In this document: positions 47,646 to 62,118 of the stretch, one piece after another | Numbering within the stretch: the stretch's first letter is position 1 | How the letters are laid out: the number at the start of each line of letters is the position of its first letter | Translations under genes and position numbers: made by a program | Source: Candidatus Sulfomarinibacter sp. | GTDB lineage: Bacteria > Acidobacteriota > Thermoanaerobaculia > Thermoanaerobaculales > Sulfomarinibacteraceae | DNA length: 64,000 nucleotides | Reading direction: 5' to 3' | Assembly: GCA_041560205.1 (NCBI GenBank) | Contig: JBFFBV010000014.1 | Coordinates: 3,811-67,810 of the forward strand | Notes under the pieces: model-generated | Databases searched by the model: none | What the model was told of the DNA's origin: nothing | What the model saw: the letters and a program-made list of their open reading frames with translations, nothing else

Positions 47646-48233
47646 TCAAGCGCGCCCCATCAGCTGTGATCTCTCGACCGGCGGGAGATCGTCCCAAGCG
47701 CCGGCGAGCCAGGCGACGCCTTCGAGAAAGGCCCGCGCGCGATCGGTGTTGGGGCACACAGAGCGCACCAGCTTCCAGAACTCGGGCGAGTGGTTGAGGT
47801 GGACGGTATGCGCGAGCTCGTGCGCGACCACCGCTTCGAGCACCCAGGGCGGCATCTGACGGAGCGCCGCGTTGAGGCGGACGATCCCGGTCTGGCGGCT
47901 ATAGCTCCCCCACTGCGATGTCTGGTTGGTCACGAATCGCACTTCGGTGACCTGAGGCGGTTCCGGGAAACGCTCCGCTGTCTTGCGAGCAATCGCTTCG
48001 GCCCTGCCGTCAGCGTTGAGGGCCTCAGCACGGGACCTGCGCACGAGACGCCGGGCGAGCTGGACGATCGTCTCCTCGAGCTCTCCTGACGGGACCCGGT
48101 GGGGGGCGCTGACCGAGAGAGTCCTCCCGTGGAGACGGGCATTGATGTTTTTCACCCGTTTGCGCACGACCTTCAGCTCGAGGGTCAAACCGTCGACTTC
48201 CAGAATGCGTACATCATTCGCCATGGCCAGCAT
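47646..48233 (-). CDS. YgjP-like (DUF45/M48-type) zinc metallopeptidase
   Basis: 'VVAHELAHTVHLNHSPEFWKLV' (HExxH plus NHSxxFW). Start at ATG 48233 or 48224. Confidence 0.75.
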   Translation of the reverse strand: MLAMANDVRILEVDGLTLELKVVRKRVKNINARLHGRTLSVSAPHRVPSGELEETIVQLARRLVRRSRAEALNADGRAEAIARKTAERFPEPPQVTEVRFVTNQTSQWGSYSRQTGIVRLNAALRQMPPWVLEAVVAHELAHTVHLNHSPEFWKLVRSVCPNTDRARAFLEGVAWLAGAWDDLPPVERSQLMGRA

Positions 48234-48270
48234 GCTACCCGAACGCGCTACACTCAGCCCGGAGCACCTG

Positions 48271-50676
48271 GTGAGAGAATCGAGCTTTTCCGGCAATTTC
48301 CGCAGACTCGTGGCTGGTGTGGTGCTCGTTCTCGTTGCGGCCGCCCCACCCGCGTTGGCGGACTACTGGTACGAACACTACGAGAACGCGAAGTCCGCTC
48401 TCGACAGCGGCAATTGGAGCCGAGCCGTCGAGGAGCTGCAACAGGCGCTGGAGCGCAAGGGGGACTCCGGCGCGCGGGTGCGCTACTACGGCATGAAGGT
48501 CCGCGAGTACTTCCCCTACCTCAAGCTCGGCATCGCCTACTTTCAGCTCGGACAGTACGAAGCGGCGTTGCAGGCCTTTCAAACCGAGGAGCAGCTGGGC
48601 GCGATCGAGGCCTCGGAGTCCGACTACGCGGAGCTCAGGCGTTACCGGACTCTGGCTCTCGAAGCACTCCTGGAAGCTGCGCAGGCCGAGGAAGAGCGCA
48701 TCGCCCAAATCGTACGTGAAAGCCTCCGCGACGCCGAGATTCTCGAAGGGCAGGGACGGCTACCCGAGGCGATGGAGGCTCTCGGCAAGGGCCTCGCCGT
48801 CGATCCCGAGAACCAGGAGGCCGTCGCCAAGATGGGCGAGCTGCGGACCGAGGTCGTCCGCCGCGACCGTGAACGAGCCGACACGGCTCGAGCGCGAGAA
48901 CTCCTCACTCGGGGGCGGACGCTCCTCGACGAGGAAGACTATTCCGAGGCCTCCAGCCTCTTCCGCCAGGCACTCGAGATTCGCCCGAGCCCGGAAGCCC
49001 AGGACCTCTTCGATCAGGCCCGTGCCGCGCTTCTGGCAGAGATTCAGGCCGAGGAAGACGCCGAAGCGAGGCAGGAGGCGATTAGCTCTGGCCTGAGAAT
49101 GGCCCGGGAGCTCGAGTCCAACGGACGCTTCGACGAGGCCCTCGGCCGGCTCCAGCCAGTGCTCGCCGCGGATCCACAGAATAGAGATGCGCTGGCCCTT
49201 CAGCAACGAATCCTCAGAGGGCAGCAGCTCTCCGCGGAGGAGGCCTCTCTCGCCCGCGCGATCGCGGAAGCGCGGGCCGAGTTCACCGCTGGCAGTTTCG
49301 AAACTGCGATCTCGGCCGCGAACTTCGCCCTCGCCATCGATCCCGGGAATGCCGAAGCGCTCGATGTGGTCCGCGATTCCTACGGTCAGATCAGTCGCCG
49401 GTTGCTCGGTTCACGGACCGTCGAAAACCTCCCGCCTGCAATCCGCTTCGCCGATTTCAGGACCGAACGGGATGACGGCTCCTGGGCCCAACTGGTGCAG
49501 AGGCCGGACTTTCGTCTCAGCGGCGTGGTCATCGACACCTCGCCGGTCGAGGTTCAATTCGAGGCAACGGCCGATCGCGAGATCTCGGGAACCAGCACCA
49601 GCCAACCGATGGGCGACATCTACATCACCGAGTTCGCCCTCGACGATCTCCTCGCCGACGGCGAAACGACCTACCTGCTGTACGCGACCGACAACGGCGG
49701 CCGGACCACCATGTCGGAGTACACGGTCATCTACTCGCCACCCTTTTATCGGTCCCTTTGGTTCCAGCTGTTCGTCGCATCGATACCGATTGTGGTGCTC
49801 ACCGCGGTGTGGAGCCAGCGCCTTCGAAGGCGGCGGCAACTCATGAAGCGCCGTTTCAATCCCTTTATCGCCGGAGCCCCGGTACTCGACACCGACATGT
49901 TCTTCGGACGAGACCAGCTCGTCGAGCGCATCCTCCAGACCATCCACAACAACAGCCTCCTCCTGTACGGAGAGCGGCGAATCGGCAAAACCTCGCTCCA
50001 ACACCAGCTCATGCGACGACTGAAACAGCTCGACGACCCGCAGTACGATTTTTTCCCGGTCTATGTCGACCTGCAGGGCACGCCGGAGTCGCAGTTCTTC
50101 GCGACCCTCGCGGAAGACGTCTTTCACGAGCTCGCACCCGTGCTCGATGGAATGAGGCCGGGGGACGGGCTGCCCGATAAAACGGACTACGGTTACCGCG
50201 AGCTGGTCGCCGACCTTCGTCGGGTGATCAAGGCGCTCGAGGCAAGGACCTCCAAAAAGGTCAAGCTCGTGCTGCTGATCGACGAGGTCGACGAGCTCAA
50301 CGCCTACGACCCGCGGATCAACCAGCGGCTGCGAAGTCTGTTCATGAAGAGCTTTGCCGAAAACCTCGTAGCGGTTGTTTCCGGGGTGGAGATCCGCAAG
50401 CAGTGGGACAAGGAAGGCAGTCCCTGGTACAACTTCTTCGAGGAGATCGAGGTGACGCCGATCGACCGTGACGACGCGGTCGAGCTGATCACACGACCCA
50501 TCGGCGGCGTGTTCAAGGTCGATCAAAATGTCATCGACCGGATCATCGAGCTCACCGATCGCAAGCCCTACCGCGTCCAGCGGCTCTGTATCGCCCTCGT
50601 CAACCGCATGTACGAGCAGGGTCGGCGGCAGATCACGATCGCCGATGTGGAAACCGTCGCCGGAAACGACCCGTGA
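48271..50676 (+). CDS. type-A ATPase cassette 1: signal/TM - periplasmic TPR array - beta domain - TM - P-loop ATPase
   Basis: Start uncertain: GTG 48271 after GGAG, or ATG 48223/48232, both of which collide with the divergent gene. The protein has 'LVAGVVLVLVAAAPPALA', about 400 aa of TPR, and TM 'LWFQLFVASIPIVVLTAVW'. ATPase motifs: 'NPFIAGAPVLDTDMFFGRDQL', Walker A 'GERRIGKTS', Walker B 'LVLLIDEVDE', and 'EGSPWYNFFEEI'. Confidence 0.75.
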   Translation: MRESSFSGNFRRLVAGVVLVLVAAAPPALADYWYEHYENAKSALDSGNWSRAVEELQQALERKGDSGARVRYYGMKVREYFPYLKLGIAYFQLGQYEAALQAFQTEEQLGAIEASESDYAELRRYRTLALEALLEAAQAEEERIAQIVRESLRDAEILEGQGRLPEAMEALGKGLAVDPENQEAVAKMGELRTEVVRRDRERADTARARELLTRGRTLLDEEDYSEASSLFRQALEIRPSPEAQDLFDQARAALLAEIQAEEDAEARQEAISSGLRMARELESNGRFDEALGRLQPVLAADPQNRDALALQQRILRGQQLSAEEASLARAIAEARAEFTAGSFETAISAANFALAIDPGNAEALDVVRDSYGQISRRLLGSRTVENLPPAIRFADFRTERDDGSWAQLVQRPDFRLSGVVIDTSPVEVQFEATADREISGTSTSQPMGDIYITEFALDDLLADGETTYLLYATDNGGRTTMSEYTVIYSPPFYRSLWFQLFVASIPIVVLTAVWSQRLRRRRQLMKRRFNPFIAGAPVLDTDMFFGRDQLVERILQTIHNNSLLLYGERRIGKTSLQHQLMRRLKQLDDPQYDFFPVYVDLQGTPESQFFATLAEDVFHELAPVLDGMRPGDGLPDKTDYGYRELVADLRRVIKALEARTSKKVKLVLLIDEVDELNAYDPRINQRLRSLFMKSFAENLVAVVSGVEIRKQWDKEGSPWYNFFEEIEVTPIDRDDAVELITRPIGGVFKVDQNVIDRIIELTDRKPYRVQRLCIALVNRMYEQGRRQITIADVETVAGNDP

Positions 50677-52583
50677 GCGCCGCGCAGGCAAACCCGTTCG
50701 TCGTGGGCCAGTGGGTCAGAGGCGACCGATTCTATGGGCGAGGTGCGCTGATCGAGGAGATCCTCGAGGGCCCTCGAAACTCGCTCTGGGTGCTCGGGAC
50801 GCGGCGCGTCGGGAAGACCTCGCTGCTCAAGCAGCTCGAGCACCTGACGTCGATGGACGGCCAGAACTACCTCCCCATTTTCTGGGATTTCCAGGGGGCC
50901 GATGACCCCGACGAACTCAACTTCACGTTTTCGGACGCCCTGCTCGACGCCGAGGAGCGCCTCGACGCGATTGGAGTCGAGGTTTCCGAACTCCAGTTCG
51001 AGGATCTCTTCACCTCGATGGGAAAGCTCCGTCGTAGGCTTCGTAGCCTTGGGCGTTCGCTTCTTTTGTTGTGTGACGAGGTCGAAGAAATCCTCAACCT
51101 CCACCGTCAGGATCCGGCGCTCCTCCGCAAGCTCCGTCGCGCCATGCAGTCTCAGGACGGCGTTCGTTCGGTGCTCACCTCGTCGGTGCGGTTGTGTGAT
51201 CTCGCAGAGCAACGGGACGACACCTCGCCCTTTCTCCACGGTTTCAGCCCGCCGCTCTACATCGCCGGTCTCTCCGACGAGGAGGCGATGGCGCTGGTTC
51301 GACAGGACAACTGGCCCTCGCCTGCCCGTCCCGCCATCGACGAAAAGGACGCTGTCGAGATCTGCCGCCGCTGCGACAGGCATCCCTATCTGACGCAGCT
51401 CGTCTGCAAACGTCTGATCGACACCGGTGACCTCGAAGAGGCTTGCCATCAGGTCGCCTCGGACCGCATGATCAGTTACTTCTTCTCGGTCGACTTCGAT
51501 CTCTTGTCGGTGACAGAGAAAACAGTTCTCCGGTTGATCGCCGAGCAGGGGTCGGCGACCGAAGCGTCGCTGCATGCCGTCATGCAGGCCGACACGGCGG
51601 ATCGAGATGACGCGCTGCAACGGTTGGAGAACCTCGGTTTCATCGGTTGTGATGACGATCGCAACTACGTGCTGCCGAGCTTCTTCCTTCGCCGCTGGCT
51701 CGAGGATCTCGCTGAGACCGAGCCGGCTCCTCAATCTGATTCGCTCCACGAGGACCCGACGATTTCGGTGCAGACCGTCGACAACCGCTACACGCTGCAC
51801 GAGGAGATCGGCAGGGGAGCCACCGGCAGCGTCTACAAGGCGCGCGATGCAGTGCTCGACACCTGGGTGGCGGTCAAGCTGTTGAAGCCGGAGTACGCCG
51901 CCAACCGTGAGGCGCTCGATCGGGTTCGACAGGAAATCCTCTTGTCACGGGACATCGCCCACCCCAACATCCTCCGCGTCTACCACCTCGGCACGTCCGA
52001 AGGCGGGACCTACATCACCATGCAGTGGATCCGGGGCGAAACCCTTGCGGACGTGATCGCAGCGCGCGGAGCACTGCCGATCGCGCAAGCCTTGTCCGTC
52101 GCCGAGAAGCTTGCCTCGGCGTTGGCGGCCGCCCATGAACGCCAGATCCTCCACCGCGACATCAAACCAGGCAATATCCTGATCGACTCGGACGGTGAAC
52201 CGTACCTCGCCGATTTCGGACTCGCTCGACTGATCGGGGGCCAAGGCGTCACCCGGCACGGCGTTTTCGTCGGCACGCCCCACTACTCCTCGCCGGAGCA
52301 GGTCGCACTCGAAGAGCTCGACGAGCGTTCCGACATCTACTCCCTGGGTCTGGTCATCTTCGAGATGGCGACCGGTCGCCGGCCCTTCGAAGCCGACACG
52401 GTGCCCGAGATCCTGGCCATGCAGCGCAGCGAGCCCCCACCGGATCCGGCAACGATTGCGCCCAAGATACCGGGCGAGCTGGCGGCGATCGTGCTGCGCT
52501 GCCTGGCCAAAGACCCCGCGGAGCGGATCGCCACCGCGGTGGAGCTCAAGGAGGCGCTTCGCCGCGTCGCCGATGATCTTTGA
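50673..52583 (+). CDS. type-B ATPase cassette 1: P-loop ATPase fused to Ser/Thr protein kinase
   Basis: GTGA overlap with the type-A gene. ATPase motifs 'NPFVVGQWVRGDRFYGR', 'GTRRVGKTS', 'LLLLCDEVEE'. Kinase motifs 'GRGATGSVYKA', 'VAVKLL', 'HRDIKPGNIL', 'DFGLAR', 'GTPHYSSPEQ'. Confidence 0.85.
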   Translation: MSAAQANPFVVGQWVRGDRFYGRGALIEEILEGPRNSLWVLGTRRVGKTSLLKQLEHLTSMDGQNYLPIFWDFQGADDPDELNFTFSDALLDAEERLDAIGVEVSELQFEDLFTSMGKLRRRLRSLGRSLLLLCDEVEEILNLHRQDPALLRKLRRAMQSQDGVRSVLTSSVRLCDLAEQRDDTSPFLHGFSPPLYIAGLSDEEAMALVRQDNWPSPARPAIDEKDAVEICRRCDRHPYLTQLVCKRLIDTGDLEEACHQVASDRMISYFFSVDFDLLSVTEKTVLRLIAEQGSATEASLHAVMQADTADRDDALQRLENLGFIGCDDDRNYVLPSFFLRRWLEDLAETEPAPQSDSLHEDPTISVQTVDNRYTLHEEIGRGATGSVYKARDAVLDTWVAVKLLKPEYAANREALDRVRQEILLSRDIAHPNILRVYHLGTSEGGTYITMQWIRGETLADVIAARGALPIAQALSVAEKLASALAAAHERQILHRDIKPGNILIDSDGEPYLADFGLARLIGGQGVTRHGVFVGTPHYSSPEQVALEELDERSDIYSLGLVIFEMATGRRPFEADTVPEILAMQRSEPPPDPATIAPKIPGELAAIVLRCLAKDPAERIATAVELKEALRRVADDL

Positions 52584-52586
52584 TCT

Positions 52587-53936
52587 TTAAAAGCTGTAGA
52601 TCGCCGACAGGGCGAAGACGTCGGCATCATCCGAAAAATCAGCGCCGATATCGATCTGCAGACGCCTCAACGCAAGCCCGGCACCGACACTGAGGTGCAG
52701 CTGGTCCTTGCCCGGCGGATACAGGGCACGGTCGAAAGGATCCTCGCCGATGAATCTGAATCGGTGGTCGGGGTCGCGCCACAGGCCCACACGGAGCGCG
52801 ACGCCCGGGCTCGTCTCAATGAAGAGGTATTCGAGCCCGAATCGCAGCTCATTGCCATCCTCCAGGGCGATGAACCTCGTATCGATCTGCTCCGAGTCGA
52901 GGGACTCCATGATGACCGAGTACTCCACGCGATCCCACTCGAAGCCAACCGTGACAGCGCCGCTCGGAGATCGGTAGGCGATCCCCAGCCCCCAGACATC
53001 CGGGATCGAGATATGCTGCCCCGAAAGGCCGCCGAGATCCGTCCCCTCTGGTTCCCAGTGCGCCGGCCCGGCACGGTTTTCGATGGTGTACTCGAAATCC
53101 GGTCCCTGCCGATAGACGCCACCGAGCCGCCAATCCTCGGCGAAACGCCACAAAAAGCCGGCGCTGATTCCCCAGGCCGAACTATCACTCACGAACTGGC
53201 CGCTCAAAAATAACCGGTCGGCGAGAAAGGAATTGGCTTCCCAAAAGGTTTCTGGGTACCGGTCCATGAGGTATGCCAATCCCGAAACATCGATGGATCC
53301 GACAAAATACGAAACACCGAGGCCGACGCTGAGAGACTCACTCAGCTCGACGGCACCCGCGATCCCGTTGTTGATGATCTCGAAGTCGGTCGTCGTGATC
53401 TGGTCGATCTCGCGCCGAGTGCCGCCCTCAGCGGCATCACCGAAGAGACCATTGAGCTCCGTGCGCACCGCGAAGTCGGCCAACTGGTGACGATAGACGG
53501 CCAGAGACCATTTTCTGCCAGGGTAGACGAAGGAAAGAAAGGACACTCCGGAGGTCGTATCTTCCGAGAGCCCGGTTCGAAGACCACTAACGGTGTCGAT
53601 ACCGTAACCGGTCGGCGCCCCCAAAGCCCGCCCCCCCGCCGTGTAGGAGGTTTCGTACTGGCGGCGCCTCAGCTCGAGGGAGATTTCGGGGCGCAGGAGC
53701 TGGACGAGACCGGCCGGGTTGGCGAAAGCGGCGGTGGCGTCGTCGGCCAGGGCGACGAAGGCTCCCGCGAGTCCCATGCTCCGCGCACCCGGGTTGGAGA
53801 AGCTGAACTCGAGCGAAGGCGGCGCCTCCTGCGCCCAAGTGAAAGCAGGGATCAGCACCACCACGAGGGCGAGGACGGCGCCCGTAACGCGCCGTTCCAC
53901 AACGAGATCCGTTTTCCACCTGCGAGCGCCAGTCAT
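52587..53936 (-). CDS. outer-membrane beta-barrel, FadL/TodX/PorV-like (paralogue 1)
   Basis: Signal peptide, 'FSFSNPGARSMGLAGAFVALADDATAAFANPAGL', alternating beta pattern, C-terminal '...ALSAIYSF'. An alternative GTG start at 53900 aligns better with paralogue 2. Confidence 0.65.
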   Translation of the reverse strand: MTGARRWKTDLVVERRVTGAVLALVVVLIPAFTWAQEAPPSLEFSFSNPGARSMGLAGAFVALADDATAAFANPAGLVQLLRPEISLELRRRQYETSYTAGGRALGAPTGYGIDTVSGLRTGLSEDTTSGVSFLSFVYPGRKWSLAVYRHQLADFAVRTELNGLFGDAAEGGTRREIDQITTTDFEIINNGIAGAVELSESLSVGLGVSYFVGSIDVSGLAYLMDRYPETFWEANSFLADRLFLSGQFVSDSSAWGISAGFLWRFAEDWRLGGVYRQGPDFEYTIENRAGPAHWEPEGTDLGGLSGQHISIPDVWGLGIAYRSPSGAVTVGFEWDRVEYSVIMESLDSEQIDTRFIALEDGNELRFGLEYLFIETSPGVALRVGLWRDPDHRFRFIGEDPFDRALYPPGKDQLHLSVGAGLALRRLQIDIGADFSDDADVFALSAIYSF

Positions 53937-53943
53937 CGGGGAG

Positions 53944-53952
53944 ATCCTAGCA
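53944..53952 (-). promoter_or_regulatory. extended -10-like TGCTAGGAT upstream of barrel paralogue 1
   Basis: Minus strand TTTTCCGCGTGCTAGGAT. The homologous block TTTTCCCCGTGCTACGAT lies upstream of paralogue 2. Confidence 0.35.
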
Positions 53953-54047
53953 CGCGGAAAAGCTTCACGAGACCCTCATCACGACCTCAGGATTCCATCA
54001 AGCGGTATCCTCCTCGGCGAGCCACATTCGATGGTGAGGGGGACGTG

Positions 54048-56615
54048 ATGCATCGAATCCTGAAGATCGCGGCGCTCGCCATGGCAGTCCTCGTGACGGC
54101 AGCACCGGTCTCGGCGCAGAGGCGGTGGACCGTCACCGGCCTTGATGTTCCAGAGCTCGCCGCCGTAGACGAGATGATGCAGGACATCATGATGGGTTAC
54201 GGCATCCGAGGGAGCACGGTAGCCATCGTCAAAGACGGCCGCCTCGTGTACGCACGTGGATTCACCTGGGATCAGCCCAATGTCGAGCCCGTCCAACCCA
54301 CCACCCTCTTCCGCATCGGCAGCATCAGCAAATCGATCACCTCGGTCGCCATTCACCAGCTCATCGAGCAGGGTGCGCTCACCCATAACACACCGGTGAT
54401 GTCGATCATCGACCTCGAGCCACTCTGGGGAACTCCGACGAACCCTCGGCTCGATTCAACAACGGTAGATCACCTGCTGACCCACACCAGTGGCATGTAC
54501 TCGCTGGACAATATCTACACCGTGGCGGGTATCGTCGCCGCCGCGCACGGTGTCGAGCCGCCACCGACCAAGCAGGAGGTCATTTCATACATCATCGCAC
54601 GGTCGTTCCTCTTCGAACCCGGAACCTCCTGGGACTACAATAATTACGGCTACATCATGCTCGGCATGCTGGCCGAGCGGATCACCGGTCTCGATTTCCC
54701 AGAATATGTCTTCGAAAACGTCTTTCGTCCGGTGGGCGTGAGCCGTGTGCGGATGCCGCACACCCTCCGTGTCGACCTCGCTCCCACCGAGACAACCTAT
54801 GACGGCGTCGAAGGCGATCCGTACGCGACAATCGCCGAGCACGCCTTTGCAGCCGGCCTCATGGTGATGGCGGCACCCGACCTGGCGCGCCTCTACTCCG
54901 CCCTCTTCGATTTCCCCGACGCGAGCGGTCTGCTCGAGCCTGCCACCATCGACGAGATGCTTTCGATACCCTTTCCCGCAGCCGAGGAGCTGGGATACGG
55001 GCGCGGCTGGTTCAACGAGGACTTCTTCGTCAACTCGGGTCACACCGTCGGCTGGCTCACGAACCCGAATGACCACCTCCGGATTCACGCTCACAGTGGA
55101 GGCGGCGCCGGTGTCCACACCCTCGCCCTGTGGCGCTCGGACGGCATCGTCCTCGTCTGGTTCACCAACAAGGACCCGGTGATCCCGACCCTCGACTTTC
55201 CGGAAATCACTTCGTGGCCCGAGCACGATCTCTGGGAGTCCGTGGGTATCTCACTGGAACCCGTTGGCTCGGCGCCAGTCGAATCCTGGATCCCCGCCGT
55301 CGCCCACATGAACGGGGTCGGTGACAGTGCCTGGCGTTCCGACGTCGGTCTGCTCAACCGTTCATCCGGCACCAACCAGGTTCGTCTGCGATACCACCTC
55401 GAGAACGGATTCACCGATCGTGAACTCGAGCTGGCCGCAGGTGAGTCGCGTGTTATTTCGGACATTGTCGGGTCCTTCGGAGAGAACGGCTTCGGTCCCC
55501 TCCAGGTCTTTTCGTCAGATGCCCTCACCGCAACCTCGAGAACCTATGACCAGTCTCCACACGGCACATTCGGCCAGTCTCTCGACGGCGTCACCGCCAC
55601 TGGAGGGCTCGAGGGTGGTGAGTCGGTCGTGCTCATGCAGCTCCGCGAGGACGATTCCGCGAGATCAAACATCGGCATTCACAACCAGTGGCGGCGTTCT
55701 GCTCGGGTCGCGCTCGAGTTCTATGATGCCAACGGCACCCTGGTCACCGCTCACAGTCGTGAGATCCCCGGCCAGAGCACCGTCCAGATCGACCGCCCCT
55801 TCCGAAGCCTCGGCGGTCGCAGTGACATCGATTCCGGCTATTGTGTGATCACCGTCAGCTCCGGCCAGGACATCTACGTTTACGCTACGGTCATCGACAA
55901 CGCCACCGACGATCCCACAGCGGTACCGATGAAGAGTGGAACCGGCCACTCCCGACAATGGATCGCCGCCGCAGCACACCTTCGGGGTGCCCACGGCAGC
56001 GTGTGGAGGACCGACCTCGGCCTGCTCAACCGGTCCGCCGCGCCTGCCGTGGCCGAGATCACGTTTCGCCGCGACGACGGCGAACACGCCTCGGTCACTG
56101 TCGACGTCATGGCTGGCCAGCAGCTCGTCATCGACGACGTGGTTGCGCGACTGGGCATGACCGGGTCGGGCGCCATCGAGATCTCTTCCGACCGACCCCT
56201 CATGGCGAGCTCCCGCACCTTCAATGCTGCCGCCGAGGGCACCTTCGGCCTCTTTCTCGACGGCGTCCCTGACGAAAGTGCGGCCTACGCGGGTGACACG
56301 GTGTGGCTGGCCCAGCTGCGGCAAAGCGACGTCTTTCGCACGAACATCGGCATCTCCAACAACGGGGACTCAAACGCCAGAGTTCGGATTCACCTCTATG
56401 ACTCCACGGGTGCCGAGCTCGGCTCCCGCGTTCGAGATCTCGACCCGGGAGCCTGGCTTCAGTTCCAGGAGCCTTTTGCTTTGATCGGGGCTCGCAACAA
56501 CATCGAAGCTGGGTACGCGCGAATCGAGATCGAGTCTGGGCAGAGGGTCATCACCTACGCGTCGGTGATCGACAACGCGACCAACGACGGCACGGCCATC
56601 ACGATGAAGAGGTGA
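54048..56615 (+). CDS. secreted serine hydrolase (beta-lactamase/PBP-like fold) with two C-terminal 218-aa repeats
   Basis: Start moved to ATG 54048 (signal 'IAALAMAVLVTAAPVSA'). 'FRIGSISKSITS' (SxxK) and 'LLTHTSGM'. Tandem repeats at 55286-55937 and 55959-56612. Confidence 0.8.
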   Translation: MHRILKIAALAMAVLVTAAPVSAQRRWTVTGLDVPELAAVDEMMQDIMMGYGIRGSTVAIVKDGRLVYARGFTWDQPNVEPVQPTTLFRIGSISKSITSVAIHQLIEQGALTHNTPVMSIIDLEPLWGTPTNPRLDSTTVDHLLTHTSGMYSLDNIYTVAGIVAAAHGVEPPPTKQEVISYIIARSFLFEPGTSWDYNNYGYIMLGMLAERITGLDFPEYVFENVFRPVGVSRVRMPHTLRVDLAPTETTYDGVEGDPYATIAEHAFAAGLMVMAAPDLARLYSALFDFPDASGLLEPATIDEMLSIPFPAAEELGYGRGWFNEDFFVNSGHTVGWLTNPNDHLRIHAHSGGGAGVHTLALWRSDGIVLVWFTNKDPVIPTLDFPEITSWPEHDLWESVGISLEPVGSAPVESWIPAVAHMNGVGDSAWRSDVGLLNRSSGTNQVRLRYHLENGFTDRELELAAGESRVISDIVGSFGENGFGPLQVFSSDALTATSRTYDQSPHGTFGQSLDGVTATGGLEGGESVVLMQLREDDSARSNIGIHNQWRRSARVALEFYDANGTLVTAHSREIPGQSTVQIDRPFRSLGGRSDIDSGYCVITVSSGQDIYVYATVIDNATDDPTAVPMKSGTGHSRQWIAAAAHLRGAHGSVWRTDLGLLNRSAAPAVAEITFRRDDGEHASVTVDVMAGQQLVIDDVVARLGMTGSGAIEISSDRPLMASSRTFNAAAEGTFGLFLDGVPDESAAYAGDTVWLAQLRQSDVFRTNIGISNNGDSNARVRIHLYDSTGAELGSRVRDLDPGAWLQFQEPFALIGARNNIEAGYARIEIESGQRVITYASVIDNATNDGTAITMKR

Positions 56616-56656
56616 CCCGCATGGCACGGCACAGCGACGACAGCAGGAGGCGCACG

Positions 56657-56791
56657 ATGGAAACTCCGCATCAGGGTAACGCATCACCATTTACGGGCGC
56701 AGGCGAACCGCGTTCCGGTGACATCGCGATCACGGTCTTGACCGCCTTCATTCTGCTCGTCGTGCTGGTCGTCGTCGCGATCCTCGCTTAG
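56657..56791 (+). CDS. small tail-anchored membrane protein (44 aa, tentative)
   Basis: Own translation: METPHQGNASPFTGAGEPRSGDIAITVLTAFILLVVLVVVAILA. AGGAGG SD 6 nt upstream. The stop overlaps the convergent barrel gene by 4 nt. Confidence 0.3.
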   Translation: METPHQGNASPFTGAGEPRSGDIAITVLTAFILLVVLVVVAILA

Positions 56792-58143
56792 AAGCTGTAA
56801 ATCGCCGACAGAGAGAAGGTATCGACAGGGTCCGACAAGTCCGCGGCGAGATCGATCTGAAACGTGCTGAAGGCGAGACCCAGACCCAGCGCCACGTGGA
56901 CTTCATTCACCCCGGGCTGGAAGAGGGCCCTGTGTTCGGGATCATCACTGGTGCTGCGAAATCGATGATCGGGATCAATCCACACACCGGCCCTGAGAGC
57001 GAGCAAGGGCCGGCTGGCGAGAAATGCGTACTCGGCGCCGAGCCGGAGCTCGTCTCCGTCATCGGCGACGAGCGAGATCGTGAGATCGAGATCGGGGTCG
57101 AGGCTCTCGATCACCTCGGCATCGAAGCTCGCAAAGATCGAGGAGTACTCGATACGGTCCCACTCGAACCCGACGGTGAGCGCGCCGTCCGACGATCTGT
57201 ACGCGAGGCCGAGTCCATAGACATCGGGGAACTGCATCGGTGTCGCGATCGTGAAGACCGTCGCGCCCGGGAAAAAAGTCGGGTCGAGAAACTGCGCAAG
57301 CGCCCCAGCCTGAGCGTCGTACACCACCCTGAACTCGGGCGCCTGGCGGTAAAAACCACCGAGGCTCCAGTTCTCGGCGAAGCCCCAGAGGAGACCCGCG
57401 CTCAGACCCCAGTCCGTATCGTCGGTCGCCATTGCACCATTGGCAATTTGGCGCTCGGGCAGGTAGGAGGTCGGGCTGAAGAAGCTCTGCAGCGTGTCTT
57501 CGTCGTAGATCGCCCACTCGTAGGGGGCATCGAGCCGTCCGCGAAAGTAAACCACACCGATCCCGAGGCTGAAATGATCACTCAGCCGATAGGCACCGGC
57601 GACGCCGTAGCTGACGATCTCGAGCTCGGTCGACCACCTGCGGTCGATCTCGCGCGAGGGCAGGCCGGTCGCGGAATCGGTGTGGAAGAGCCCCTGAGTC
57701 CCCGTCTGGGCCCGAAAGTTCGCCAAGCGGTGCGTGTACGCCGCGATGGACCACTTCCCCTTCGGATAGACAAAGGACAGGAATGACAGACCGGTCAGCT
57801 GTTCTTCCGAGACGGCCGACCGGAGACCGTCGACGGTGTCGAGGCCGATGCCGGTCGGTTCGCCGTCATACCGGCCCCCTTCGATGTACGGCGTCGAATA
57901 CCGCCAGTGGCGGAGCTCCGCCGAGATCTCGAGGGAGGCGAGCTGCACCAATCCCGCCGGATTGGCGAAAGCGGCTGTTGCGTCATCGGCGAGGGCGACA
58001 AAGGCTCCGCCGAGACCGAGACTGCGCGCTCCCGGGTTCGAAAAGCTGAACTCGAAGGTGGGCGGGGTCTCCTGGCCGGTAGCTGTCGCAGGAGCGACCA
58101 CCATTCCCAACGCAAGCACAAAAATGGCTTGGCGTGCGTTCAT
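56788..58143 (-). CDS. outer-membrane beta-barrel, FadL/TodX/PorV-like (paralogue 2)
   Basis: Start moved to ATG 58143 (MNARQAIFVLALGMVVAPATA). 'FEFSFSNPGARSLGLGGAFVALADDATAAFANPAGL' and C-terminal '...SLSAIYSF'. Confidence 0.65.
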   Translation of the reverse strand: MNARQAIFVLALGMVVAPATATGQETPPTFEFSFSNPGARSLGLGGAFVALADDATAAFANPAGLVQLASLEISAELRHWRYSTPYIEGGRYDGEPTGIGLDTVDGLRSAVSEEQLTGLSFLSFVYPKGKWSIAAYTHRLANFRAQTGTQGLFHTDSATGLPSREIDRRWSTELEIVSYGVAGAYRLSDHFSLGIGVVYFRGRLDAPYEWAIYDEDTLQSFFSPTSYLPERQIANGAMATDDTDWGLSAGLLWGFAENWSLGGFYRQAPEFRVVYDAQAGALAQFLDPTFFPGATVFTIATPMQFPDVYGLGLAYRSSDGALTVGFEWDRIEYSSIFASFDAEVIESLDPDLDLTISLVADDGDELRLGAEYAFLASRPLLALRAGVWIDPDHRFRSTSDDPEHRALFQPGVNEVHVALGLGLAFSTFQIDLAADLSDPVDTFSLSAIYSF

Positions 58144-58190
58144 TGTGCGACCCGAGATCGAAGCTGCACCGCCATGGCTCCAACTCGGGA

Positions 58191-58199
58191 ATCGTAGCA
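58191..58199 (-). promoter_or_regulatory. extended -10-like TGCTACGAT upstream of barrel paralogue 2
   Basis: Minus-strand TGCTACGAT 47 nt upstream of ATG 58143. Confidence 0.35.
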
Positions 58200-58285
58200 C
58201 GGGGAAAACCCTCATCGGATCCTCATCTCAACCTCAAGTCTCCCGGCATCCCACGCCCTAGCTTGGTGAGGGAAGGGAGGACCCT

Positions 58286-58987
58286 ATGAACAACAGGTTT
58301 CCGAATCAGGTCTTCGCGGTGGCTGTGATCACGTTCTTCACCGTCATGGCATCACTGCCGGGGACCACCTCCGCCGAAGATGATCCGTGGAAAGCGCAGC
58401 TTGCTGACGGTGATCGGTGGATGGTCCGCTTCGCCGCGGTTTTGATGAACCCGAGCGGAAGTGAGGTGAATGTCGCCGGTACCGACGATCAATACTCCTA
58501 TGACGGCAAGAACGGCTACGGTTTCGCGATCGATTTCGAGTACCGCGCTGCCCGTCGACTCGGCATCGATTTTGGCGTGATCTCCGCGTCGCCCGGCATC
58601 GATGTCACCGTCGAAGATGAGTTTGCGAGCGTCTCTGCGGAGGCCGACATCAGACTCACACCGATCTATGCCGCCGCCAATATCTATCTCACCCCGGAGG
58701 GCCGTTTCAATCTCTACATCGGACCCATCTTGGCCTACGTCATCTATGAAAGCTTCGAGCTCAACTCCGGCCCCGGTCAGAGTGAACGGTTCAGCACCGA
58801 GGACGGCTTCGGATACGGCGCCGTGTTGGGTCTGGACATCGAGGTCGGAAGCGGAAAATGGTTCCTCAATACGGCCATCAGGTATCTCGACACCACACTC
58901 GAAGCAGCTCCGCGTGATGACGATGGCGTCGGAAAGGCGGACCTCAACCCGACAATCTTCAGCTTCGGCTTCGGCGTCAGGTTTTGA
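58286..58987 (+). CDS. OmpW-family outer-membrane protein
   Basis: Signal peptide 'FTVMASLPGTTSA', 8-strand-sized beta pattern, C-terminal 'FSFGFGVRF'. Confidence 0.65.
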   Translation: MNNRFPNQVFAVAVITFFTVMASLPGTTSAEDDPWKAQLADGDRWMVRFAAVLMNPSGSEVNVAGTDDQYSYDGKNGYGFAIDFEYRAARRLGIDFGVISASPGIDVTVEDEFASVSAEADIRLTPIYAAANIYLTPEGRFNLYIGPILAYVIYESFELNSGPGQSERFSTEDGFGYGAVLGLDIEVGSGKWFLNTAIRYLDTTLEAAPRDDDGVGKADLNPTIFSFGFGVRF

Positions 58988-59087
58988 TCCCCTGGCTCTG
59001 TTTTCCATCGGGGCCCGGCGGCGCGCTGGGCCTCGACCCGTTCTCCCGGGCACCGATCCCGGGACACGACCCGACAGGACCTTCGGC

Positions 59088-59807
59088 ATGAATGTCGTTC
59101 GCACCCCGCTGCGCTCCCTGCTCGGCCTCTTCCGAGTCCTCGGGAGGGAGGCGCAGGAGAAGCCGCCTTCGCCACCGACGACCTCCGGTGGATCTGGCGG
59201 GGAGGACCGCGAGCGCCTGATCCTCCGCATCCTCAGTACGCTCCGCAACAACAGCATCCTCCTGTGCGGCACGACTGGCAGCGGCAAGACCTCGATCCTT
59301 CTCGAGCTCAAGGATCGTCTCGCGGCCGGCGGGGATCCTGCGACGGTATTCTTTCCGGCCTACGTCAATCTCGAGGGCGTGCCCGAGCAGCTGCTCTTCG
59401 CGACGGTCGCCGATGCGGTTCTCGAGCAGCTCGACTTCGCGCCGCCGAGCAAGGTCGAACGCTTCGGCGCGGACTACGGGCACCGAGAGCTTGTCGGCGA
59501 CTTCCGAGCGGTCATCCGGACGCTCAAGCAATCGAGCCCCAGATCGGCCAGGCTCGTTCTCCTAGTCGATCACATCGACGAGCTCAACACCTATGACCCA
59601 CGGACGACCCAACGCGTCCGAGGTCTCTTCATGACGGGTCTCGATGGAGTCCTCGTGATGGTGGCAACCGCGGTCGAGATCGACAAGCGCTGGGAGCAGG
59701 AGGGGAGCCCCTGGTACAACTTCTTCGAGGAGATCGGCCTCCCCGAGCCGCCGAGCACGGATGCGGACCCGGACGAAGGCCGGGATACAATGGCGCGGAA
59801 TGAATGA
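59088..59807 (+). CDS. type-A ATPase cassette 2: minimal P-loop ATPase
   Basis: Start moved to ATG 59088. Walker A 'GTTGSGKTS', Walker B 'LVLLVDHIDE', shared 'EGSPWYNFFEEI'. Lacks the N-terminal sensor and the C-terminal lid of cassette 1. Confidence 0.7.
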   Translation: MNVVRTPLRSLLGLFRVLGREAQEKPPSPPTTSGGSGGEDRERLILRILSTLRNNSILLCGTTGSGKTSILLELKDRLAAGGDPATVFFPAYVNLEGVPEQLLFATVADAVLEQLDFAPPSKVERFGADYGHRELVGDFRAVIRTLKQSSPRSARLVLLVDHIDELNTYDPRTTQRVRGLFMTGLDGVLVMVATAVEIDKRWEQEGSPWYNFFEEIGLPEPPSTDADPDEGRDTMARNE

Positions 59808-61275
59808 ACAACCCGCGATCGAAGGGGCCCCTGCCGGCGACTTCAGGCTTGCGGACTGGCTGGTCCAGCCGAGCCTCAACCGACTTACCAGCGACGACCG
59901 GGTCATCCAGCTCGAACCCAAGCTGATGGACGTGCTGGTCTACCTGGCTCGGAACGCCGGGCGGGTGGTTTCGAAGCATGAGATCACAGACGCCGTGTGG
60001 CCCGAGGTGTTCATCACCGAATCGGTCATCACCCGTTCGATCGCTGGGCTGCGGCGCGCCTTTACAGACGACGTCAAGAATCCGAAGTTCATCGAGACGA
60101 TTTCGAAGCGCGGCTATCGTTTGATCGCCGAAATTCGTCCGATTTCGATCGAGGCGAGCCGGCGCTTCGGTCACCAAGAGCGGACGCCGGCCGGTTCTTC
60201 AGAAGCGTCAGCGGCAGCCGTTCCCTTCGTCGTCGGACAGTGGGTCCGGGGCGAAACCTTTTACGGACGGACTTCCGTTATCGACGAGGTCCTCCGAGGC
60301 AACCGCAACTGGTTGTGGCTGCTCGGGACCCGGAGGATCGGCAAGACCTCGGTGCTCAAGGAGCTCGAGCACCGCGCCCTGAGCTCGCCCGATCTCGGTT
60401 TCCTGCCGGTCTTCTGGGACCTCCAGGGTGCGGACCGACCGGAAGAGCTCCACCGCGACTTCGCCGACGCGCTCCTCGACGCCGAAGAACGCTTCAGCGA
60501 CCACGGTATCGCCCTCTCCGACGTCCAATCGGACGATCTCTTCGAATCTCTCGGGCACATCCGCCGCACCCTGCTGACGAAAGACCTCCGTCTCCTGCTG
60601 CTCTGCGACGAGGTCGAGGAGCTGATCCAGCTCCAACGCAAGGACCCGTCGCTGCTTCGCAAGCTCCGCAGGGCGCTGCACTCGCGGGACGGCATCCGTT
60701 CGGTGCTTGCATCGAGCGTGCGCCTGTGGAAGCTCGCCGAGCCCGACGAGGACACCTCCCCGTTTCTCGATGGATTCACGCCACCGCTGACCATCGGATC
60801 GTTGGAGCCTGAAGCCGCCCGAAACCTCGTCCGGCAGAGCCAGCTGCCCGAGGCGTCGCGCCCCGATTTCAGCGATCAGGAGGTCGAGCGAATCCGCGAA
60901 CTCTGCGGCAACCACCCGTACCAGATCCAGCTCTTGTGCCGGCGTGCGCTCGACCGTGGAGATCTCGACGAAGCCATCGACGACGTCGCTCACGATCGAG
61001 CGGTCGGGTTTTTCTTTTCCGTCGACTTCGGACTTCTCGGCGACACGGACCGCACCGTCCTCCACATTCTCGCCGGGGAGGATCACGCACCACTCGAAGC
61101 CGTCCAAGGCCAACTTGAGGACCAGCCAGATGCCGTCGCGACCAGCCTCACAATGCTGGAGAGCCTGGGTCTGGTCGGTCAGGGTATCGACGGAGGTTTT
61201 GCCGTCACGAGCCACTTCCTGCGCCGGTGGCTGCGCGAGGCAAACCCCGAATCGCCGGCCTCACCGAAAGCCTGA
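59800..61275 (+). CDS. type-B ATPase cassette 2: OmpR/CadC-type wHTH fused to P-loop ATPase
   Basis: 8-nt overlap (ATGAATGA) with the type-A gene. wHTH: 'FRLADWLVQPSLNRL...LEPKLMDVLVYLARNAGRVVSKHEI...VWPEVFITESVITRSIAGLRRAF...ISKRGYRL'. ATPase: 'PFVVGQWVRGETFYGR', 'GTRRIGKTS', 'LLLLCDEVEE'. Confidence 0.8.
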   Translation: MNEQPAIEGAPAGDFRLADWLVQPSLNRLTSDDRVIQLEPKLMDVLVYLARNAGRVVSKHEITDAVWPEVFITESVITRSIAGLRRAFTDDVKNPKFIETISKRGYRLIAEIRPISIEASRRFGHQERTPAGSSEASAAAVPFVVGQWVRGETFYGRTSVIDEVLRGNRNWLWLLGTRRIGKTSVLKELEHRALSSPDLGFLPVFWDLQGADRPEELHRDFADALLDAEERFSDHGIALSDVQSDDLFESLGHIRRTLLTKDLRLLLLCDEVEELIQLQRKDPSLLRKLRRALHSRDGIRSVLASSVRLWKLAEPDEDTSPFLDGFTPPLTIGSLEPEAARNLVRQSQLPEASRPDFSDQEVERIRELCGNHPYQIQLLCRRALDRGDLDEAIDDVAHDRAVGFFFSVDFGLLGDTDRTVLHILAGEDHAPLEAVQGQLEDQPDAVATSLTMLESLGLVGQGIDGGFAVTSHFLRRWLREANPESPASPKA

Positions 61276-61305: not shown

Positions 61306-62118
61306 TCACTCCGCGGGCACCCAGTTCGCCCGCGCGTGGGTGCGGCGAAAGCCGTAGCGTTCGATGTTGTGGAAGGAGTGCTGCGCGTCACCGTCGGCCG
61401 CTTCGCCGGTCGAGGTCGCGAAAGCCGTGCACCCCTTCGCGATGCCGTCGGCGAGACGACGGGAGATGACCGCGCCCTGGCTGCCCCGGCGCCGGAACTC
61501 GGGCAGCGTGGCCGCCCAGTCGAGCCACGCGACACCGTCGTGGACCCGCATTGCGCCGCAACCGGCAGGGACACCGCCGTCAAAGCTCAGATAGATGTGC
61601 CACCCTGCACGGCCGACAAGCCCGGCCAACACCGGGGTCCATTCCTCGTCGAGCTCGAAGCCAATCGCCGCGATACGCCCGAAATCGCTTGCGTGCTCCG
61701 CACCGATCTCGCGCACCTCGAGGTCCGAACGTGGCTCGGGCGCGGGTTCCGTTCCACGCGTGAATTTGGCCCACGCACGGTGGTAGGGCTTGAGACCCGT
61801 GTCCGTGAGCCACTGTTCGAGTCCCTCGGGCCGTGCGTCCGGGTCAAGCTGCAGAAAGTAACGGCTCACACCCGCCACGCGGTACCTTTCGACGATCGTC
61901 TCGACGGTTGTCCGGGCTGCGGGGCGATCCACGCCGAGACCGACCACGCGGTTGACCAAGATCGATGGTCTTGCGGAGGCCATCGATAGCAGGACCCCGT
62001 TCACCACTTCCAGCGCGAGCCCGAGCCGCTCCCGGCTGGCAGCCGGGGCGGCGCGGTGGAGATCGGCGAGGGCCGCCCGCTCGGCGGCCTCCGCCTGAAT
62101 TGTGGAATGAACGGTCAT
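61306..62118 (-). CDS. GNAT-family N-acetyltransferase
   Basis: Start moved to ATG 62118. C-terminal acetyl-CoA motif 'LPEFRRRGSQGAVISRRLADG' and 'HNIERYGF'. Confidence 0.75.
   Translation of the reverse strand: MTVHSTIQAEAAERAALADLHRAAPAASRERLGLALEVVNGVLLSMASARPSILVNRVVGLGVDRPAARTTVETIVERYRVAGVSRYFLQLDPDARPEGLEQWLTDTGLKPYHRAWAKFTRGTEPAPEPRSDLEVREIGAEHASDFGRIAAIGFELDEEWTPVLAGLVGRAGWHIYLSFDGGVPAGCGAMRVHDGVAWLDWAATLPEFRRRGSQGAVISRRLADGIAKGCTAFATSTGEAADGDAQHSFHNIERYGFRRTHARANWVPAE

Follow-up and report, generated by a model that had tools for sequence, protein, structure and literature searches.

Paired A- and B-type P-loop NTPase genes in a candidate trans-envelope signalling locus of Candidatus Sulfomarinibacter

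Introduction

Candidatus Sulfomarinibacter sp., an uncultured member of the Acidobacteriota, carries two pairs of genes for P-loop nucleoside triphosphatases (NTPases) on a 64,000-nucleotide stretch of DNA (assembly GCA_041560205.1, contig JBFFBV010000014.1, positions 3,811 to 67,810; the whole stretch is called the window here). Within each pair a gene of one type, A, is followed by a gene of a second type, B. We read this locus, with moderate confidence, as one multi-component trans-envelope signalling system built on a conserved cassette of a sensor NTPase (A) and an effector NTPase (B). From the translational coupling of the two genes, the paralogy of their products and a protein in which a sensor, a transmembrane (TM) helix, an A module and a B module are joined, we infer that A and B form a heteromer. 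The four NTPase genes are listed below with their window positions and, in brackets, the kind of evidence for each; open reading frame is abbreviated to ORF.

48271..50676 (+): A1, proposed sensor subunit (ORF, Pfam, hydrophobicity, core model)
50673..52583 (+): B1, proposed transducer subunit, a B-type NTPase core with a Hanks-type Ser/Thr kinase (ORF, Pfam, core model)
59088..59807 (+): A2, short cytoplasmic A-type protein, a putative pseudo-NTPase (ORF, alignment to A1, orthologues)
59800..61275 (+): B2, proposed output subunit, a CadC/ToxR-type winged helix with a B-type NTPase core (ORF, Pfam, PDB match)

The stop codon of A1, TGA (50674-50676), shares bases with the GTG start codon of B1 at 50673 (GTGA), and the stop codon of A2 (59805-59807) overlaps the ATG of B2 at 59800 (ATGAATGA) by 8 nt. 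A1 and A2 are 50% identical across 182 amino acids (E 2e-54), and B1 and B2 are 53% identical across 351 (E 2e-114). A first-pass annotation of the window had reported these gene coordinates, motifs and stop/start overlaps and had paired the genes as paralogues, and all of this is present in the sequence.

Architecture of the A and B proteins

A1 has two hydrophobic segments, one at residues 10-32 (nt 48298-48366; signal or anchor) and one at residues 495-516 (nt 49753-49818; TM helix). The RLRRRRQLMKRR stretch that follows the second segment places the N-terminal domain in the periplasm and the NTPase in the cytoplasm. The periplasmic part contains a TPR array (residues 37-376, nt 48379-49398; many TPRs in Pfam) and a beta-rich domain, to which a PDB sequence search gave no match. 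The A-type NTPase core with its lid occupies residues 530-801 (nt 49858-50673) and bears the Walker A motif GERRIGKTS at residue 567, the Walker B motif LLIDEVDE at residue 668 and the block EGSPWYNFFEEI at residue 715.

B1 begins with an NTPase core (residues 1-350, nt 50673-51722) composed of a nucleotide-binding domain (NBD), a helical domain and a winged helix. Its kinase domain (residues 373-621, nt 51789-52535; Pfam Pkinase, E 2.5e-51) has the features of a Hanks-type Ser/Thr kinase, with VAVK at residue 399, HRDIKPGN at 494, DFG at 514 and SPE at 540. B2 starts instead with a Trans_reg_C winged helix (residues 34-108, nt 59899-60123; Pfam, E 9e-17), the nearest solved relatives of which are the DNA-binding domains of CadC and ToxR (CadC 5ju7, E 5e-22), and which also matches NCBIfam NF007540 (E 7e-30). 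The B-type NTPase core follows at residues 142-487 (nt 60223-61260). A hydrophobicity scan found no hydrophobic or TM segment in B2, which is soluble. B2 falls in a widespread clade of B proteins with a winged helix-turn-helix (wHTH-B) and is not a recent copy of B1. The accessory domains assigned to A1, B1 and B2 in the first-pass annotation, namely TPRs with a TM helix, a full kinase and a wHTH, were all recovered with Pfam, NCBIfam and the hydrophobicity scan.

A2 has no N-terminal NPF..FFGR motif, C-terminal lid, TM helix or sensor. Its Walker A motif (GTTGSGKTS) is intact, and in its Walker B motif (LLVDHIDE) the catalytic glutamate is replaced by histidine. It had been described as a bare core, which holds for the missing sensor and TM segment but does not cover the further loss of the N-terminal motif, the lid and the Walker B glutamate. 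Among the loci fetched from other genomes, this short type is confined to Sulfomarinibacteraceae-like genomes and always stands ahead of a wHTH-B gene. Its ORF is intact in 11 genomes, with the lid absent in all but one. Most orthologues have the Walker B glutamate changed to G, H or another residue, two have a degenerate Walker A motif, and the blocks 'NNSILL', 'PRTTQRVRSLFM' and 'EGSPWYNFFEEI' are near-invariant. A2 diverges faster than its neighbors, at 54-73% identity versus 77-87% for A1 orthologues. We read A2 as a catalytically dead pseudo-NTPase that would serve as an adaptor and keep an interaction surface. Three loci (L058, L071 and L086, of which the last two may be one and the same sequence) retain A1, A2 and B2 and lack B1 and the porin gene OM1 described below; on this pattern the kinase subunit resembles an accessory to a core of A1, A2 and B2.

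Conservation of the A-B pairing

A search with the B core returned 809 proteins at E <1e-5. The best 120 of these 809 are 53-84% identical to the query, mostly 53-59%, and clustering of the family at 50% left 341 representatives at E up to 1e-30. A B-centred set of 72 genome loci was assembled, and every ORF in it was typed with A- and B-specific hidden Markov models (HMMs). Carriers belong to the Acidobacteriota (Ca. Sulfomarinibacteraceae, other Thermoanaerobaculia, Holophagae, Vicinamibacteria and Polarisedimenticolia) and to the Gammaproteobacteria (Woeseiaceae). The Ca. Sulfomarinibacteraceae loci were recovered at 71-78% identity.

Adjacency was counted for those B genes that had 3 kb or more of sequence upstream, 77 in all. 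An A gene lies directly upstream on the same strand in 53 of them and within 5 kb in 71. As a reverse and less biased test, 80 metagenome loci were fetched with a profile of the A core, and 54 were informative. B stands directly downstream of A in 37 of these loci, only upstream (divergent or tandem) in 15 and elsewhere in the locus in two; none of the 54 lacks a B gene. The A-B adjacency noticed in the window thus extends to other genomes, and gene overlaps of 4-8 nt between A and B recur across phyla. Additionally, of 87 B genes, 67 (77%) have a FadL-type porin gene no more than 5 kb away, and the identity between two A cores is correlated with that between the B cores next to them (mirror-tree r = 0.86, versus a permutation maximum of 0.19).

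Variable inputs, variable outputs and fusion proteins

The B proteins of the fetched loci fall into the following architectures, with the number of proteins in each.

C-terminal Hanks kinase: 58
N-terminal CadC-like winged helix: 51
No extra domain: 13
C-terminal PF07638 extracytoplasmic function (ECF) sigma domain: 8
Kinase and sigma domain in one ORF: 7

One locus (L021) encodes B, Pkinase and Sigma70_ECF domains in a single 853-residue ORF, confirmed with Pfam, which has an ATGA overlap with the upstream A gene. The B-linked sigma domain bears 'LQPTALVHEAY', the ECF43 variant of sigma region 2.2. ECF43 sigma factors are activated through phosphorylation by a cognate Hanks kinase (PMC13147305; PMC7826278), and the main text of PMC7826278 makes no mention of ATPase-fused ECFs. 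Each of the six informative B-sigma loci also encodes a B-kinase. In the Acidobacteriota, almost every wHTH-B gene occurs together with an A gene and with another B gene that either bears a kinase or has no extra domain. In the Woeseiaceae the set is limited to A and a wHTH-B, which has a membrane anchor of its own at the C-terminus.

That anchor is a conserved pair of helices (FFAELRRRHVFRV...LAWAFELTPEG; L094 2703-4514 (-), 4692-5825 (+), L001 5927-7525). A gene for a Calx-beta/DUF5666 lipoprotein lies between wHTH-B and A in L094, and one for a DUF5666/DUF2807 protein takes this place in L001. Such lipoproteins may be a further component of the Woeseiaceae variant.

More distant B relatives carry TIR, CHAT, HEPN, EAD7, AAA_21 (AbiEii-like) or TPR domains. 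An A-type core lies directly upstream of, or divergent from, every one that could be inspected, and all seven examined are paired or fused. Among the arrangements, the A gene precedes the B gene in the pairs of EAD7-A with B-TIR (ATGA overlap), Reg_prop-A with B-CHAT, GAF-A with EAD7-B, DZR/TPR-A with B-TPR and a short A with B-AAA_21, and HEPN-B adjoins an A(TPR) gene and a FadL-type porin gene. A thus carries variable inputs (TPR, Reg_prop, GAF, EAD7) and B carries variable outputs. The first-pass annotation had proposed interchangeable inputs and outputs from the window, where accessory domains differ between the copies; this stands across genomes, but within the window the supposed swap of the sensor is a loss, in A2.

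The protein P0325 (1874 residues, present on two contigs) contains a Reg_prop/Y_Y_Y extracytoplasmic sensor, a TM helix, an A core and a B core, in that order. Its first core scores 271 with the A HMM versus 51 with the B HMM, and its second scores 199 with the B HMM versus 43 with the A HMM. P0325 is a natural fusion of A with B, of the Rosetta-stone kind. Apparent fusions in P0142 and P0389 may be artefacts of gene calling or frameshifts and were not used as evidence.

The gene for P0325 is flanked in L156 by genes for a 1140-residue Hanks kinase with WD40 propellers and a 1228-residue TPR_MalT-type protein (2272-5694 (-), 11640-15326 (+)), which may be further partners. A gene for a STAS-domain protein lies beside the cassette in L002 (13032-13373), and stand-alone PF07638-type ECF sigma genes lie near a separate kinase in L016 (6527-7009) and L070 (3813-4313). 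These extra genes hint at additional partner-switch or sigma layers.

Fold and family membership

A1 and B1 are 25% identical by BLASTP (E 8e-14), and profile-profile alignment with hhalign gives E 1.4e-24 over 233 columns. A and B are distant paralogues that share the ATPase_2/nSTAND1/ORC-like P-loop NTPase fold. EGSPWYNFFEEI of A aligns, in the A-B profile alignment, at the position of DTSPFLHGF of B, so these two sequences are the shared post-sensor-1 loop of the family. The first-pass annotation had noted both, EGSPWYNFFEEI as an unusual block of type A and 'DTSPFL.GF' as one of type B; the sequences are there, but they are one family loop and not type-specific blocks. 'KPYRVQ' of A and 'HPYLTQ' of B are the counterparts of the GxP-type motif in the helical domain, with HPY at residue 237 in B.

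Core models were built with AlphaFold from 56-62 homologues. In the B1 model (predicted local distance difference test, pLDDT, 85) an NBD and a helical domain are followed by a winged helix at the C-terminus. The best Foldseek matches of this model are the archaeal ATPase_2 proteins 2qen and 2fna (E 8e-12 and 1e-10; TM-score 0.65-0.67), followed in the PDB by ORC/Cdc6, plant NLR resistosomes, MalT (8bob), CED-4 and Avs3. The A1 model (pLDDT 88) consists of an NBD and a lid and lacks a winged helix; in the PDB it is most like Cdc6/Orc1, ORC, RFC and Rpt. The STAND class, said to go back to Leipe et al. in 2004, reportedly combines an NBD, a helical domain and a winged helix with Walker A and B motifs and a GxP-like motif. 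This tripartite module is present in B, as seen in the model and in MarR-like matches on the winged-helix region. It is absent from A, where the A1 core stops after the lid helices and A2 has no lid.

Pfam nSTAND1 (PF20703, cut-off 27.1 bits) is exceeded by A1 (39.5 bits) and not by A2 (25.7), B1 (22.3) or B2 (18.6); some B homologues reach it, at 28.7-29.5 bits. No protein of the window reaches the cut-off of Pfam ATPase_2/Arch_ATPase (PF01637, 33.2 bits), with 31.1 bits for A1, 26.3 for B1 and 21.9 for B2. The classification suggested in the first-pass annotation thus leads to no well-characterised stand-alone family: matches to nSTAND1 and ATPase_2 are marginal, and the nearest structures, 2qen and 2fna, are uncharacterised.

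Several other assignments were tried and rejected. PADLOC-DB 2.0 gave no system-specific match; its generic kinase models (PD-T4-6, mad6) match the B1 kinase only, and matches to the NTPase cores are no better than E 2.5e-5 over about 60 amino acids, so assignment to a known defence system was dropped. Membership of nSTAND2 was rejected: hhalign of the B profile against WP_094198012.1 gave a probability of 0.15, and no window protein matched at E <0.01. Two B homologues (P0094 and P0107) match Pfam nSTAND2 marginally, with 25-27 bits versus a cut-off of 24. B2 has only Trans_reg_C in Pfam and no BTAD, NB-ARC or TPR match, and it is not a SARP/AfsR protein. Nor is it a ToxR/CadC one-component regulator, for the wHTH fits but B2 has no hydrophobic segment. 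A FecA/FecR/FecI system was likewise rejected, as Pfam finds no TonB-dependent transducer, FecR or FecI-type sigma domain in the locus.

Genes and elements between the two pairs

Four genes lie between A1-B1 and A2-B2, two of them encoding FadL/TodX-family porins, one an OmpW-family protein and one a secreted hydrolase. They are listed here with the two candidate operators.

52587..53936 (-): OM1, FadL/TodX-family outer-membrane channel (Pfam Toluene_X, 37.7 bits versus cut-off 29.7)
53948..54000 (+): candidate operator 1, in the divergent OM1/hydrolase intergenic region (repeat counts, conservation in orthologous regions)
54048..56615 (+): secreted serine hydrolase with a beta-lactamase fold, SISK at residue 92 (Pfam Beta-lactamase, E 5e-48)
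56788..58215 (-): OM2, second FadL/TodX-family channel (Toluene_X, 45.9 bits versus cut-off 29.7)
58195..58236 (+): candidate operator 2, in the divergent OM2/ompW intergenic region (repeat counts, conservation)
58286..58987 (+): OmpW-family small outer-membrane beta-barrel (Pfam OmpW, 44.8 bits versus cut-off 24; synteny)

OM1 and OM2 are 51% identical, so that the porins are duplicated as well as the A/B pairs. The true start of OM2 is likely the MNARQ codon at 58143, and ompW is probably the first gene of an ompW-A2-B2 operon. The hydrolase has a signal-like N-terminus in the hydrophobicity scan, and among the fetched loci its gene is syntenic only in those of Sulfomarinibacteraceae type. 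The C-terminal half of the hydrolase is a tandem duplicate of a unit of about 224 amino acids (residues 407-629 and 631-854; 38% identity, E 5e-54). This repeat domain has no Pfam match, and its copies start with W(I)PAxAHxxG..W(R)(S/T)D(V/L)GLLNRS.

The whole gene arrangement is syntenic in the Ca. Sulfomarinibacteraceae, and typing of ORFs with the A and B HMMs found no further A- or B-type ORF in the 64-kb window. The first-pass annotation had called the locus an island, which we reject for a compositional or mobile element: GC content (0.62-0.65) is not distinct from the surroundings, GC skew is unremarkable, there is no tRNA gene or Rfam family, and the neighbors are housekeeping genes, ligA and lon among them. 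The same annotation had spoken of a duplicated cassette. Both pairs are real, but they are complementary parts of one syntenic multi-component system and not redundant copies.

The gene upstream of A1 (47646-48296, -) encodes a YgjP-like metallopeptidase (DUF45, HExxH), and its 5' end overlaps that of A1 by 26 nt on the opposite strand. Because the annotated 5' ends overlap in this way, the A1 promoter must lie inside the YgjP-like gene.

A candidate operator of C(C/A)TCA repeats

The OM1/hydrolase and OM2/ompW intergenic regions are paralogous, and both hold TAGCACGNGGAAAA, which has two matches in the window versus 0.02 expected. In operator 1, TAGCACGCGGAAAA precedes CTTCA-N6-CCTCA-N6-CCTCA-N6-CATCA, a series with 11-bp spacing; the element lies some 75-85 nt ahead of the hydrolase start. 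Operator 2 consists of TAGCACGGGGAAAA followed by CCTCA-N6-CCTCA-N6-CCTCA and lies 76 nt upstream of the ompW-like start. Triple CCTCA at 11-bp spacing has three matches in the window versus 0.01 expected, and the repeats form invariant columns in an alignment of 10 orthologous and paralogous regions.

An unbiased screen of 1.95 Mb of loci for exact pentamers repeated three times at 10-11-bp spacing was dominated by CCTCA, and every CCTCA site is intergenic. Relative to annotated genes, these sites lie about 85-88 nt before the hydrolase start, at least 76 nt before ompW or, in loci where porin and A2 genes adjoin, ahead of A2. Triple C[CA]TCA has 46 matches in the same 1.95 Mb versus none for six composition-matched control motifs, and 20 of 20 among the matches listed are intergenic. 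In Woeseiaceae loci, CATCA triplets stand beside wHTH-B genes, no further than about 150-235 nt from the wHTH region detected there. Winged helices of the OmpR/PhoB/ToxR class bind direct repeats one helical turn apart, and the C(C/A)TCA repeats are a likely candidate operator for B2. The porin and hydrolase genes had been put forward in the first-pass annotation as plausible targets, together with the two intergenic regions in which to look, and it is in exactly these regions that the conserved 11-bp-periodic repeats are found.

Should the -10-like TAGCTT or CACATT about 21 nt past the last repeat be functional, the repeats would cover the -35 region, like those of pho boxes. The repeat element is missing from the A1-B1 operon, which suggests a constitutive sensor and kinase together with an inducible set of ompW-A2-B2, hydrolase and porin genes. 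An RNA hairpin, GGGGAAAACCC, was also considered for this element and rejected: its pairing is not conserved (G-G clashes in region 1 and in L007), no compensatory changes were seen and there is no Rfam match, so a DNA element is preferred.

Proposed mechanism and alternatives

If the locus works as one signalling system, A1 would be a type-I membrane protein whose periplasmic TPR and beta domains detect a cue in the envelope. The cue would most plausibly be a hydrophobic substrate or the state of a FadL/OmpW channel, our best guess because the linked genes encode FadL and OmpW channels together with an esterase- or amidase-like secreted hydrolase. The signal would pass through the single TM helix and alter the nucleotide or oligomeric state of the cytoplasmic NTPase of A1. 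This module would then nucleate or remodel a hetero-oligomer with B1 and, by way of the dead adaptor A2, with B2, in the manner of NAIP/NLRC4 or ORC/Cdc6. The B1 kinase may be activated inside the assembly and would phosphorylate the transcription-factor subunit. B2 would bind the direct repeats by its CadC-like winged helix and activate the hydrolase gene (hyd) and ompW-A2-B2, thereby positively regulating its own expression; the divergent porin genes would probably be activated too. In related lineages the same pathway is condensed: some have a single chain of B, kinase and ECF43-like sigma, some have B-sigma with a separate B-kinase, and some have a kinase-less A with a membrane-anchored wHTH-B.

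More tentatively, the A/B cassette may be a general and hitherto unrecognised two-subunit bacterial device, in which a sensor NTPase with interchangeable inputs (periplasmic TPR or Reg_prop, cytoplasmic GAF, EAD adaptors) drives a paralogous effector NTPase with interchangeable outputs (kinase, sigma factor, winged helix, TIR, caspase-like CHAT, HEPN), a prokaryotic counterpart of sensor/helper NLR pairs, which in the branch of the window has been adapted to a trans-envelope pathway from FadL/OmpW to transcription.

Several points weigh against a single trans-envelope signalling system. All carriers in the 72 B-centred loci are uncultured metagenome-assembled genomes. The mirror-tree correlation is given little weight, because shared phylogeny alone yields it. 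A and wHTH-B of the Woeseiaceae are about 2 kb apart with another gene between them, so tight translational coupling is not universal. The TIR, CHAT and HEPN domains of distant members mean that a purely physiological role cannot be assumed family-wide. Finally, a scan found no sigma-70-type consensus promoter by the repeats in either intergenic region, and the position of the repeats relative to the promoter is therefore a guess.

An unlikely alternative is that A acts like a membrane anti-sigma factor, with an NTPase module that sequesters B at rest and releases it upon a periplasmic signal, so that co-assembly would be inhibitory. In several lineages B carries an ECF-type sigma domain, and the classical control of ECF sigmas is sequestration by membrane anti-sigma factors. 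The C-terminal membrane anchor of the Woeseiaceae wHTH-B points the same way, and A-B translational coupling would suit a stoichiometric inhibitor complex. However, STAND/ORC-type modules typically signal through nucleotide-dependent assembly, as do MalT, Apaf-1 and NLRC4, and a natural A-B fusion cannot operate by release. The ECF domains are moreover of the kinase-activated ECF43 type, which works without anti-sigma factors (PMC7826278; PMC13147305).

We consider it decidedly unlikely that the locus is an envelope-triggered conflict or anti-invader system, in which A senses phage or attack, B triggers a protective or abortive response, and the kinase and wHTH are one choice of effector among several. 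The TIR, CHAT, HEPN, EAD7 and AbiEii-like AAA_21 domains of distant B relatives fit such a role, as does HEPN-B beside A(TPR) and a FadL-type porin, and FadL-type porins can act as phage receptors. nSTAND1 itself was defined in predicted counter-invader systems (PMC8195603). Nevertheless, PADLOC matched generic kinase models only, and the clade of the window is highly conserved (55-58% identity across phyla), co-inherited with its neighbors in housekeeping surroundings such as ligA and lon, and neither diversifying nor mobile. Its outputs (wHTH, sigma) are transcriptional, and a conserved candidate operator precedes the porin, hydrolase and regulator genes.

It is highly unlikely, in our view, that A and B do not interact, A being a membrane ATPase that acts on the envelope (for example in porin or lipid handling), B proteins being independent regulators and adjacency reflecting co-regulation. 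Conservation of neighbors alone is no proof of contact, and in the Woeseiaceae A and B are in separate transcription units. The two modules are, however, paralogous; their 4-8-nt gene overlaps recur across phyla; the pairing survives a complete change of input, output and genomic neighborhood; a fusion protein exists; and a sensor-less, catalytically dead A2 is kept directly before B2. That A2-B2 is a redundant or decaying duplicate of A1-B1 without a separate function, as the truncation, degenerate Walker B motif and faster evolution of A2 might suggest, is extremely unlikely given the intact A2 ORF with its invariant blocks in 11 genomes, the place of B2 in the widespread wHTH-B clade and not as a recent B1 copy, the retention of A2-B2 in the loci that lack B1, and the synteny of the entire arrangement across the family.

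Comparison with known systems

A literature search found no published description of the A/B cassette. The first-pass annotation had likewise recognized no described system of this kind; this was borne out, except that the design has a precedent. The closest is a computational prediction, the two-gene nSTAND2 operon. Kaur, Iyer, Burroughs and Aravind (2021, eLife) defined nSTAND1 and, separately, described this mobile operon as a predicted hetero-multimer in which one partner is inactive and fused to GT4 or HEPN effectors (PMC8195603). In both, two adjacent genes encode STAND-type NTPases, one of which bears the variable effectors, and catalytic erosion can affect a partner, here A2. The likeness is one of design and not of family. 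Unlike the nSTAND2 operon, the window has intact Walker motifs in A1, B1 and B2, and its system is chromosomal, syntenic and not mobile, with a periplasmic sensor, regulatory outputs (kinase and wHTH, and sigma in relatives), linked porins and a candidate operator.

For nSTAND1 (PF20703), a family of predicted conflict-system NTPases whose Pfam cut-off is exceeded by A1 and not by A2, B1 or B2, published tables of domain architectures list proteins that span the membrane and have extracytoplasmic propellers, as well as HTH and kinase domains (PMC8195603). The proteins catalogued in the searched parts of these tables are, in contrast to those of the window, single polypeptides with the sensor C-terminal to the NTPase, and these parts contain no A/B pair with a FadL porin.

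Functional likeness extends to other systems, although the locus has the defining features of none of AfsK/AfsR-MalT, ECF43, FecA/FecR/FecI and the NLR pairs. The AfsK/AfsR system of Streptomyces places an OmpR-class winged helix on a STAND-like ATPase, with a TPR sensor and a Hanks kinase acting on the regulator. The window shares with it and with SARP/MalT-type regulators the combination of winged helix, STAND-like ATPase, TPR and Hanks kinase, and MalT is among the structural matches of B. It differs in distributing sensor, kinase and DNA binding among three to four proteins, each with the NTPase module. Its TPR array is in the periplasm, Pfam detected neither BTAD nor NB-ARC, and its winged helix is of CadC/ToxR type.

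ECF43 factors with their Hanks kinases (EcfP/PknT, EcfK/PknS) resemble relatives of B in having a PF07638 sigma with a QxTA phospho-threonine region, fused to or beside a Hanks kinase. They have neither NTPase modules nor an A-type sensor, and in the window a wHTH takes the place of the sigma domain. FecA-FecR-FecI and ToxR/CadC share with the model proposed for the window the route from an outer-membrane protein through an inner-membrane sensor to a transcription factor, with a porin gene in the regulon; the CadC/ToxR type of winged helix is a further likeness. The outer-membrane protein of the window is, however, of FadL type and not a TonB-dependent transducer, FecR is absent, paired P-loop NTPases would transmit the signal, and B2 is soluble.

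Sensor/helper NLR pairs (NAIP-NLRC4; RGA5/RGA4; sensor NLR-NRC) similarly divide sensing and execution between paralogous STAND modules. Unlike the window system they are eukaryotic and cytosolic, their output is cell death, and the homology is at the level of the fold only (12-16% identity). PAB2304 (2qen) and SSO1545 (2fna) are the best structural matches of B, and 2qen is the only significant PDB sequence match of A; both are, unlike the window proteins, uncharacterised single proteins without sensor or output domains.

If A and B do co-assemble, A1 would be a transmembrane receptor whose signalling domain is a STAND/ORC-like NTPase, and not a histidine kinase, an anti-sigma domain or a Hanks kinase, and the signal would be handed to a paralogous NTPase that carries the output. 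This would add a new transmembrane signalling route to two-component, ECF/anti-sigma and Hanks-kinase systems. It would explain the upstream signal input for kinase-activated ECF43-type sigma domains fused to or beside the B NTPase. One family would then bridge the wHTH, ECF43-type sigma and kinase outputs of bacterial gene regulation and the TIR, CHAT and HEPN effectors of NLR-like immunity, and offer a simple bacterial model for the working and evolution of sensor/helper NLR pairs. The uptake channels and the secreted hydrolase of abundant uncultured marine-sediment Acidobacteriota and of Woeseiaceae would also be assigned to a regulon whose operator is predicted.

Other features of the window and of the fetched loci

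The A gene of one fetched locus (L003) is spread over three ORFs (fragments 5594-7995) with transposase genes around it (2770-4053, 12964-14196 and 16725-17524), and may be a decaying copy or a long-read frameshift artefact. In L010, likewise, the hydrolase gene is in six pieces and B2 is split.

Directly downstream of B2 in the window, on the opposite strand, an ORF at 61306-62223 (-) has only a weak GNAT acetyltransferase signal (E 0.009). An 813-residue protein encoded at 9238-11679 (+) combines PEGA repeats with an FGE-sulfatase domain (formylglycine-generating-enzyme-like). ORFs of 551, 551 and 441 amino acids at 2193-3848 (+), 12446-14101 (+) and 6830-8155 (+), respectively, are without a Pfam match, and the two of 551 amino acids are not paralogues of one another.

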